Shown in pieces: positions 31,314 through 53,505 of a stretch of DNA of 64,000 nucleotides. Source of the DNA: Eledone cirrhosa (taxonomy: Eukaryota); NCBI GenBank assembly GCA_964016885.1, contig OZ024749.1, positions 56,668,001 to 56,732,000 of the forward strand. Reading direction: 5' to 3'. Numbering within the stretch: the stretch's first letter is position 1; each line of letters begins with the position of its first letter. The notes beneath the pieces were generated by a model. It had not been told where the DNA came from. It saw nothing but the letters and a program-made list of their open reading frames with translations, and made no database searches. The translations under genes and the position numbers were made by a program.

Positions 31314-31374
31314 TATTCTATTATATATATTTCAACGGTACCAAAACTTTGGTACGCTTTCATCAGATAAAATA
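31314..31374 (-). ncRNA. Type I hammerhead ribozyme, canonical core
   Basis: tattttat-CTGATGA-aagcgtaccaaagttttggtaccgtt-GAAA-tatata-TA-atagaata; 8-bp stem I, long stem II, palindromic stem III. Confidence 0.7.
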
Positions 31375-51047: not shown

Positions 51048-51644
51048 ATATATATAGTCTCTCTCTATCTACCTACCTATCTATTTCTATCTCTCACTAT
51101 ATGTCTGTCGGTATAGATGTCTATTTTTCTGCCTGGATTCTGGATTTATATTTCTCCCCCTTTCTCTCTGATTCCACCTCCACCCTCCACTCCAAATTTT
51201 CTCTGCAATGACTGCCATACCGAAATACGAAGTCAATATTTGTTGATGACAACAGATGCTGTGACTGACAAATAAGTTACAGTGATGATGATGATGATGA
51301 TGACGGTGATGGTGATTATATTGATTGGGGAGGTACAAGTGATGTTAATGGTGGTGGTGATGGTGATGATGATGGTGCTGGTGGTGGTGGTGATGATGAC
51401 GGTAATAATGATGATGATGATGCTGTTATAACTACTAAGACTTCTAGTTTGGTGTTTATTAAATGTACATTAAAAAGTTGCCGCCATTCTCTGTACAGTT
51501 TATTGTACTGGGATAAAGTGATTTATTTCACTTCGATTCAGCTTCATTTGCATTTCTTTCTTTCTTTTTTTTTCATAGAAGAAACCTTTCGTGGATAAGA
51601 AATTACATTCTTTTATTTTTAAATACTAATGTTAAATTCAATCC

Positions 51645-51886
51645 AATAATAATAATGGTTTCAGATTTAGGCACAAGGCCAGCAATTTTTTTGGAGTGTG
51701 TGTGTGTGTGTGTGGGGGGGGGGGGGTCAATAAAATCGACTCCAGTGTGTTCCTGCTACTTTATTCTATCGACCCTGCTAAGATGAAAGGCAAAGCTAAC
51801 CTCGGTGGGATTTGAACTCAGACTGTAAAGGTCCATAACTTTATACCTCAAAGCATGTCATCATACGCTCTACAGATACTGCCGAT
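51645..51886 (-). mobile_element. SINE family A, long-tail type with internal (TG)n/(G)n expansion
   Basis: gatgaaaggcaaagctaacctcggtgggatttgaactcag; (AAT)n tail. Confidence 0.85.
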
Positions 51887-52125
51887 GATGATATATTTAT
51901 TATAATAAAACACATGGGTTTATTTTTTTATTGCTCACATGGGCCACCATATAAAATACAATATGAATTCTATATGAATGTGATATCAGTTTCGCCCTTT
52001 CTACCCTCATTTCATGAAACGTTCACTCCAATCACACGCTGTTCCGAGTGAGACTTCAAAATATTAATGAGTGTTTAATTACATTGAGAAAGCCAGGATT
52101 TCAATTGTTTTTAACACATTCGTAA

Positions 52126-52329
52126 TACGAGGCTAAGCTGAAAAGTTCATAGGGGGCTGACTCTGATGGAATGATGCAATGTTGTGAAATCCTGCATGTA
52201 TTAATTTAAATACGACTTATTAATAACTGCATTGTTTCTTTCCAGGGACTATGTTGAAAAATAAACCTCGTTTGATTATTCCATGAGAGTATCTTGGTTA
52301 GCCTAACCATTTCTCAGCCGACCCTCGTA
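52126..52329 (+). mobile_element. Mariner-derived MITE
   Basis: tacgaggctaagctgaaaagttcatagg..tcagccgaccctcgta; GDYVEK* remnant. Confidence 0.8.
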
Positions 52330-52611
52330 TCGTGATGTCTTCCCTATGTCTACAGTCTTTGCAGCTGTGATTGTAGTACCGAGGAATGATAGGAAATAGT
52401 GTTTACATACATCACAGAATATATACACCCCTACTATAGAAAGCGCTACCTTAGTGATACTGGTTATATATATATATATATAAATGTATATATAGTGTAT
52501 TTTGCAATACACTGTATGCTTAATTAAAAGCATTTCGAAGACCTTACGCTATTGTTTTAGAGTAGTGACAGTCTCACTTACTTTAAATTTTCAGCAAACA
52601 AGGGGAGATAA

Positions 52612-52656
52612 AGCTGACAGAGCTCTGTTTCGTACTTTTTGGTACTTATCAAAGCT
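52612..52656 (-). ncRNA. Minimal type I hammerhead, U3-A8 core
   Basis: agct-TTGATAA-gtac-caaaaa-gtac-GAAA-cagagctctg-TC-agct. Confidence 0.8.
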
Positions 52657-52694
52657 AAGTACTCCACCTGTTTGCTGAAAATCATGGAGTACTT

Positions 52695-52739
52695 AGCTTT
52701 GATAAGTACAAAAAAGTACGAAACAGAGCTCTGTCAGCT
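52695..52739 (+). ncRNA. Minimal type I hammerhead, U3-A8 core
   Basis: agct-TTGATAA-gtac-aaaaaa-gtac-GAAA-cagagctctg-TC-agct. Confidence 0.8.
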
Positions 52740-52900
52740 TTATCTCCCCTTGTTTGCTGAAAATTTAAAGTAAGTGAGACTGTCACTACTCTAAAACAAT
52801 AGCGTAATGTCTTCGAAATGCTTTTAATTAAGCATACAGTGTATTGCAAAATACACTATATATACATTTATATATATATATCGCTATTTCAGAGCACCAA

Positions 52901-52936
<36 letters not shown>

Positions 52937-52994
52937 ACACAAAAGACATGAAAAAACACAAAGTCTTATTAGTTTCATGTTTAGGAAGAAATAT

Positions 52995-53045
52995 ATGTGG
53001 GTTTCGATGTGTCGGACATAAGTCCTTCGTTAGGAAATGAAGAGT
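52995..53045 (-). mobile_element. HH2 degenerate hammerhead
   Basis: CTAACGA-a-ggac-ttat-gtcc-GACA. Confidence 0.4.
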
Positions 53046-53389
53046 TAGGAGAATGGGAAAAGGTAGAAACAACGGAGTTTGGAAAAGACAGAAAAGGAGG
53101 GTGGGAGGAAGAGAGGGAGAGACATAGTGGGAGGAGATAAATCGATAGGCAGATGATAGATAAATGATAGTTAGATATCCATACAAACACATATATACCA
53201 ACATTGTACATGAATTAAACAAAAAACTGATCTTAAGACTCGTCAAGTTGTGGAATAATCTATTCTAGTGACTGTGTTTCCTATGTGAAGAATAAGATTC
53301 TCGTTTCTCTTCTGAGCACGTACGACAGAAGCCATAATCAGAACAATTGAATGTTTCTACGTTTCTCACGTAGTGACATTCATTGCGAC

Positions 53390-53505
53390 AAACAACACAG
53401 TACAATAAAGAAATATATTAGTTTAACTCTTGATATAGTAGGAAAAGAATGTTATTAACGTACCGGATACTAGTCCTTCATCAGAAGATAGAATGAGAAA
53501 TAAAA
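53390..53505 (-). mobile_element. HH2 element with degenerate hammerhead
   Basis: tatttctcattctatctt-CTGATGA-a-ggactagtatcc-GGTA-cgtt. Confidence 0.55.

Follow-up and report, generated by a model that had tools for sequence, protein, structure and literature searches.

A palindrome with two hammerhead motifs in the genome of Eledone cirrhosa, read as an insertion of a non-coding 320-bp repeat with PLE-like ends

What gave rise to a near-perfect palindrome that carries a hammerhead motif on each arm, and does its symmetry belong to this one site or to the kind of DNA that inserted there? The locus lies in a window (i.e. the whole 64-kb stretch of DNA that was analysed, G000:C9:56668001-56732000) from the 3.0-Gb genome of Eledone cirrhosa. 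A sequence-only reading had described it as a young arrangement of two head-to-head ribozymes.

Structure of the palindromic locus

The near-perfect palindrome that had been described is borne out, with inverted-repeat arms at 52470-52666 and 52685-52881 which are 99% complementary and separated by 18 nt. Each arm measures 197 nt with its terminal (AT)n and about 186 nt without it. The arms mismatch at exactly two places, 52710/52641, which is the first base of loop II, where one mismatch had indeed been placed, and 52808/52543. Both mismatches belong to the right arm. The left arm has the column-majority base throughout unit 108-305 of the family alignment and shows 0 differences from the copies in L010 and L012 over 193-197 nt. 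With arms differing at only 2 of 197 positions, the element was rightly called young, and the focal copy appears young relative to the rest of its family, there being no rate for an absolute date. Both focal arms have a minority base near the 3' end, and they are two of the 9 copies, among 164, that carry it.

The extent first given to the element, 52470..52881, holds for the palindrome arms but not for the element as a whole, which runs on to 52907 as a 27-nt tail (Table 1). The 18-nt centre had been said to contain a copy of arm sequence at 52751, suggestive of template switching. Instead, it belongs to the left arm, whose 5' end it extends in register with the family unit, and is not a separate sequence. 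This extension is the 5' strand of the extended stem I and is the reverse complement of 52751-52764; the centre therefore reads the same as the inverted arm, with 14-mer copies at 52669 and 52751 on the plus strand and at 52587 on the minus strand. In public contigs (17 in X1 and 21 in X3), other family copies part from the sequence of the window exactly behind 52686, from where they run on into upstream family sequence.

The sequence of the head-to-head junction has one occurrence in the genome. The 5' ends of the two arms are 20 nt apart (unit 108 versus 128), and the tail is on the shorter arm. Since each arm holds sequence that is absent from the other, neither is a full copy of its counterpart. 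No target-site duplication is readable, as both ends lie within (TA)n. In agreement with the insertion origin proposed earlier, the palindrome very probably goes back to one recent insertion event, by a 320-bp non-coding repeat that bears a hammerhead motif.

Two other interspersed repeats lie to the left of the palindrome, at 52111-52335 and 51641-51880 of the window, with 3 and 8 further matches in the window, respectively. The repeat at 52111-52335 has a very high summed depth in public contigs.

Table 1. Features of the palindromic locus (positions in the window; unit numbers refer to the 320-bp family unit)
Feature	Position	Strand	Basis and remarks
(TA)9 tract	52465..52482	.	Sequence; left end; the element's own 3' (TA)n merged with the likely target microsatellite
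Left arm, 5'-truncated copy, unit 108-320	52470..52686	-	3' end outward, no tail; blastn to the natural L003 unit, 100% identity
Type I hammerhead motif, left arm	52612..52656	-	Descriptor scan, Rfam HH9 25.0 bits (below gathering), folding
'Spacer', unit 110-127, extended stem I 5' strand	52667..52684	-	Left arm only
2-nt microhomology at the head-to-head junction	52685..52686	.	Common to both arms
Right arm, 5'-truncated copy, unit 128-320	52685..52880	+	Ends in (TA)6 at 52869-52880
Type I hammerhead motif, right arm	52695..52739	+	Descriptor scan, Rfam HH9; U3-A8 core
27-nt one-sided tail, unit 1-27	52881..52907	+	Right side only; beyond the coordinates of the sequence-only reading
(TA)n tract after the tail, likely target	52908..52934	.	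Sequence

The hammerhead motif and its predicted folding

A descriptor scan recovered the two U3-A8 hammerheads, one per arm, with the core and helices that had been proposed. Both have U3-A8, G10.1-C11.1 and a GUC triplet, and the elements of a conserved type I core (3-8 pair, GAAA box, G10.1-C11.1, A15.1-U16.1 and NUH triplet) are all found. The plus-strand cut is predicted after 52735, the same position as had been expected, and the minus-strand cut 3' of C at 52616. The left-arm motif keeps the extended stem I, the right-arm motif is without its 5' strand, and helix III is a 12-nt palindrome in both. Rfam Hammerhead_HH9 matches both arms weakly, at 25.0 and 22.5 bits against a gathering score of 52 (E values 6e-4 and 4e-3), and Rfam gave no gathering-level match anywhere in the 64-kb window. 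The Rfam miRNA matches, likewise below the gathering score, were rejected as generic hairpin matches.

All three helices can pair, but a competing monomer fold is 2.9-5.4 kcal/mol more stable, and the predicted ensemble probability of the hammerhead fold in the monomer is 1e-4 for the right arm and 4e-3 for the left arm with its extended stem. As a duplex between two molecules, helix III is predicted at -20.1 kcal/mol (computed for the helix III duplex alone), much more stable than its hairpin at -1.8 kcal/mol, which suggests cleavage as a dimer; on these energies, the motif would likely act as a dimer through its palindromic helix III. It would serve the RNA cycle of the family, not the focal locus.

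According to Cervera and de la Pena (2014, PMC4209133), PLE hammerheads include U3-A8 variants, can occur as dual opposite-strand motifs 100-700 bp apart, and are described with a palindromic helix III and low activity in vitro. Natural U3-A8 hammerheads were also reported by Perreault et al. (2011, PMC3088659). As PMC4209133 describes them, the PLE minimal hammerheads are like the present motifs in having a type I topology with a short helix I, a helix III/loop 3 that is palindromic, the U3-A8 covariation and opposite-strand dual motifs. By contrast, the 12-nt palindrome of helix III could here also fold as a 4-bp hairpin, helix II has only 4 bp without a bulged base, and helix I is extended by an interrupted 17-bp stem.

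A second, unrelated hammerhead-like motif is located at 31320-31370 of the window on the minus strand. Its core is C3-G8, its helix III is AT-palindromic, and the 200 bp around it have 77-95% matches in at least nine fetched loci, some of them inverted pairs. Other C3-G8 type I hammerhead-like repeat families were seen in a relaxed scan at L057:8582 (+), L058:607 (-), L056:229 (+) and L061:4458 (+).

The 320-bp family and the ends of its insertions

A search of the genome with the right arm returned 2346 first-look candidates. The 40 that were scored contained 41 near full-length matches with 95-100% identity, two of which are the focal arms. The exact ribozyme core pattern has 647 matches in the genome, against 0 for the reversed control and 3 for the C3 version of the core, and the U3-A8 box is identical in 40 of 43 family copies. 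Defined from a natural tandem in L003, the family unit is 320 bp long with a GC content of 33%, and its longest ATG ORF encodes 44 aa. Using tblastn with three PLE proteins, nothing was found in the 64-kb window, and only one 40-aa piece at one locus was found in L001-L030 and L071-L104. The ribozyme sits inside an interrupted stem I extension of about 17 bp, and one natural unit folded as a circle is predicted to be more stable than dinucleotide shuffles (z = -4.9, 100 shuffles). Among the exact cores listed on contig C1, loop II falls into a small number of recurring variants resembling subfamilies, with the core and helices fixed.

A 5.8-kb minus-strand tandem array of the unit is located at L101:94-7669 (G000:C1:268923500-268933400). 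It has a recurring higher-order pattern of full units and a 195-bp chimeric unit, it is joined head to head to a short tailed arm, and more plus-strand units lie nearby. A same-strand core pair 4.3 kb apart, considered as an autonomous element, proved to be this array.

Animal non-LTR retrozymes and their link to PLEs are described by Cervera and de la Pena (2020, PMC7229834), by Li et al. (2026, bioRxiv 10.64898/2026.07.22.740005) and in PMC6765202. A retrozyme is recognized by abundant linear and circular monomer RNA on the one hand and by its sequence on the other. The sequence features, i.e. a non-coding unit of 170-400 nt, a GC content under 45-50%, a type I hammerhead and tandem copies, are all found in the 320-bp family, which is a non-coding retrozyme-like repeat and a new family of a known kind. 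Further likenesses to the accounts in PMC7229834 and the bioRxiv paper are the range from monomers to long tandem arrays and the proposed mobilisation by PLEs. In contrast to those retrozymes, the core is U3-A8 and not canonical, and most sampled loci are inverted pairs with PLE tails. No published account of the 320-bp family or of a two-primer PLE insertion was found; subscription papers, Repbase and supplements may hold either.

Next to the unit itself, the form of its insertions was analysed in 88 loci, to which the first 100 listed of the 647 core matches collapsed (ordered by position and all from contig C1); sampling by exact core favours young copies and copies with two ribozymes. Head-to-head pairs make up 58 of these loci, 27 have a single orientation and 3 are of another form. 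The head-to-head arrangement is hence not special but the commonest sampled form of the family, and it is also published for PLEs. Both arms span the ribozyme in 32 of the 88 loci, and both cores are exact in 11.

As for the outer ends of the 58 head-to-head loci, 39 have a tail and a (TA)n end, 5 are TA/TA, 1 is tail/tail and 13 have an unclassified end. Exactly one tailed end is therefore found in 39 of the 45 classifiable inverted loci (binomial p=2.7e-7 against independent ends), and this end count is the new part of the analysis. In the 45 loci that have a single tail, the longer arm bears it 24 times and the shorter arm 21 times. At 59 of 66 tail ends, a tract of (TA)3 or more follows within 3 nt. 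The two 5' ends are unrelated across the 58 inverted loci (KS against uniform, p=0.50), and in 2 of the 58 the arms are within 25 nt in length; the near symmetry of the focal arms is uncommon but expected by chance. At the junctions, an overlap of 1-9 nt is present in 27 loci, 3 are blunt, 3 have a larger overlap and 25 have a gap, the gaps being partly an artefact of the block filter, which drops unit positions 292-320. The same filter probably also explains why 5' ends accumulate at unit position 1. Of 151 arm 5' ends, 0 are found within 3 nt of the predicted cut site, and 61 of the 88 loci have an arm of >335 nt, longer than one unit, which suggests that the template was likely circular or an uncleaved multimer.

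An inverted truncated copy with a one-sided tail is known from PLEs (Arkhipova et al. 2013, PMC3846280; Craig et al. 2021, PMC8557442). Judged by its sequence, the family carries this apparent PLE integration signature, with a one-sided tail, inverted 5'-truncated copies and a (TA)n target. Compared with the insertions described in these two papers, the head-to-head truncated copy, short junction overlap, tail at one end, partial tandems and (TA)n target are alike. The differences are that the 320-bp element is without an ORF, that its tail is 27 nt versus the published 30-40 nt (63 nt in the L051 family), and that no homologous autonomous partner was found for it among 40 GIY-YIG loci. The unit itself lacks the ORF with telomerase-like RT and GIY-YIG that marks an autonomous PLE.

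These 40 loci, a small sample, were examined out of 150 scored from 10,596 candidates, and the GIY-YIG search found many PLE-type loci in the genome. One of them, L051, has a 937-aa ORF with RT and with GIY-YIG at its C terminus. Its linker has a CxxxxCxxC motif which, by the description in PMC8557442, points to the Neptune or Nematis type. The flanking repeats of L051, 4979 bp apart, carry a U3-A8 hammerhead motif. Its family, whose own tail is 63 nt, ends before (TA)n in 7 nt identical to the tail of the 320-bp unit, and in 3 of 3 of its inverted loci one end is tailed while the other is short. Only this 7-nt end and the architecture are common to L051 and the 320-bp unit; in a local alignment of the unit with the L051 repeat, 95% of shuffles score equal or higher. 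Older relatives of the unit near GIY-YIG matches (L032 and L067, 74-80%) were not continuous with the ORFs by blastn and were treated as coincidence.

The locus at L051:3270-9400 (G000:C1:145867500-145877400) belongs, with L052, L056, L059, L060 and L064, to a young autonomous PLE family whose copies are 96-98% identical to one another and which has (TA)n targets. U3-A8 motifs also follow other PLE families, at L070 (by scan) and at L031 and L058 (by eye).

Origin of the inverted arms and its meaning

It is likely that the 320-bp repeat was mobilised in trans by a PLE, and that the symmetry came from both nicked strands of the (TA)n target each priming reverse transcription. The two-primer mechanism as such is favoured with some reserve. 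A PLE RT/GIY-YIG protein would nick both strands of the (TA)n target. Priming by one strand would take place at the tail start site, whereas the other strand would use the (UA)n tract that belongs to the element itself and lies 27 nt upstream. As template, either one RNA, circular or multimeric, or a pair of RNAs bound to a protein dimer would serve. The two cDNAs would stop early at unrelated places, such as unit 108 and 128 at the focal locus, and would then be joined by microhomology.

This reading fits what PMC11167929 describes for the anole PLE protein, a predicted dimer by which both strands are nicked and extended and whose RT starts at two sites, the tail being defined by them. The one-tail count, too, agrees with these two start sites and with the extension of both strands, as observed in vitro. 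In L1 twin or dual priming as described by Meyer et al. (2010, PMC2837659), both target strands also prime cDNA, with head-to-head truncated pieces in both systems. However, the enzyme is different, the start sites are here fixed 27 nt apart, and both arms carry the same 3' end because the template would be tandem or circular.

The best of the other explanations, although an unlikely one, starts from the same element but has the second arm made by fold-back self-priming, after which the hairpin would integrate with one tail trimmed. For PLE junctions of the head-to-head kind, PMC3846280 proposed that an antisense template primes itself, and the nearly symmetric focal locus, with its 5' ends 20 nt apart, speaks for it. 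So do the rare variants that arms have in common, which count for the main reading too: opposite arms share 15.6% of them, tandem units 12.5% and different loci 1.9%. When the short arm, the terminal unit and the inner unit were compared three ways (93/79/93 informative sites in 25 loci, p=0.32), the result was compatible with fold-back and did not separate it from two primers. For a target-primed cDNA to snap back, however, the copied arm would have to be nested in the first, while it is the shorter arm that bears the tail at the focal locus and in 21 of 45 loci; at the focal locus snap-back is ruled out, as each arm holds sequence that the other lacks. Short loops are not in excess either, with 5' ends within 25 nt in 7 of the 58 loci against 9 expected. 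A pre-formed hairpin with asymmetric trimming of one tail is possible.

It is far less probable that the focal locus is a functional hairpin, selected to mask cleavage by the ribozyme and to provide Dicer or ADAR with dsRNA. The masking put forward in the sequence-only reading is indeed what folding predicts, since a read-through RNA from either strand would form a hairpin of about 197 bp (about -328 kcal/mol) that excludes the ribozyme fold, the constrained fold being about 69 kcal/mol less stable. PLE-derived small RNAs have moreover been reported in rotifers (PMC3846280). On the other hand, this is a young locus, and in older ones the arms degenerate (they differ by a median of 4.6% and by up to 13.5%). 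The head-to-head form is the default of the family, dsRNA could form as a by-product without function, and no Pfam match was found in any of the 12 open frames searched out of the 45 from 40000-64000, so that no host gene is evident nearby. If true, the Dicer/ADAR idea would cover a large share of the family loci and not the focal locus alone.

An assembly fold-back artefact is the least probable of all: no piece spans the centre with 31 nt on both sides among 32 listed of 12,632 public contig pieces (X1, X3, X4 and X5, repeats skipped), but the arms differ at two sites and each has family sequence absent from the other, the symmetry ends exactly at the 3' ends of the element with different flanks beyond, these flanks match public contigs (52100-52244 with 0 differences, 52949-53400 with 1 difference), and 58 other loci have the same form, each with its own junction and following the one-tail pattern.

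Returning to priming from both target strands, the focal locus is ordinary in form and the family is of modest importance. Its short and numerous copies allow PLE insertion ends to be counted. Only the count of tailed ends might have an effect on the field, by testing in what way inverted repeats are built by PLEs. According to Craig et al. (PMC8557442), the origin of PLE tandem and inverted structures is unresolved. A general rule, by which inverted PLE insertions are primed twice, once per target strand, with the two RT start sites used coordinately so as to give one tailed end, one (TA)n end, independent 5' stops and a join by microhomology, has about an even chance of being right. If transcribed, loci of this kind may be a dispersed source of long dsRNA. 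A retrozyme-type unit with apparent PLE integration scars supports the mobilisation of retrozymes by PLEs. Should the two-priming rule be true, the origin of PLE inverted repeats would become testable in an existing in vitro system, and the family would represent hundreds of natural footprints of that reaction, linking retrozymes to PLE enzymes.
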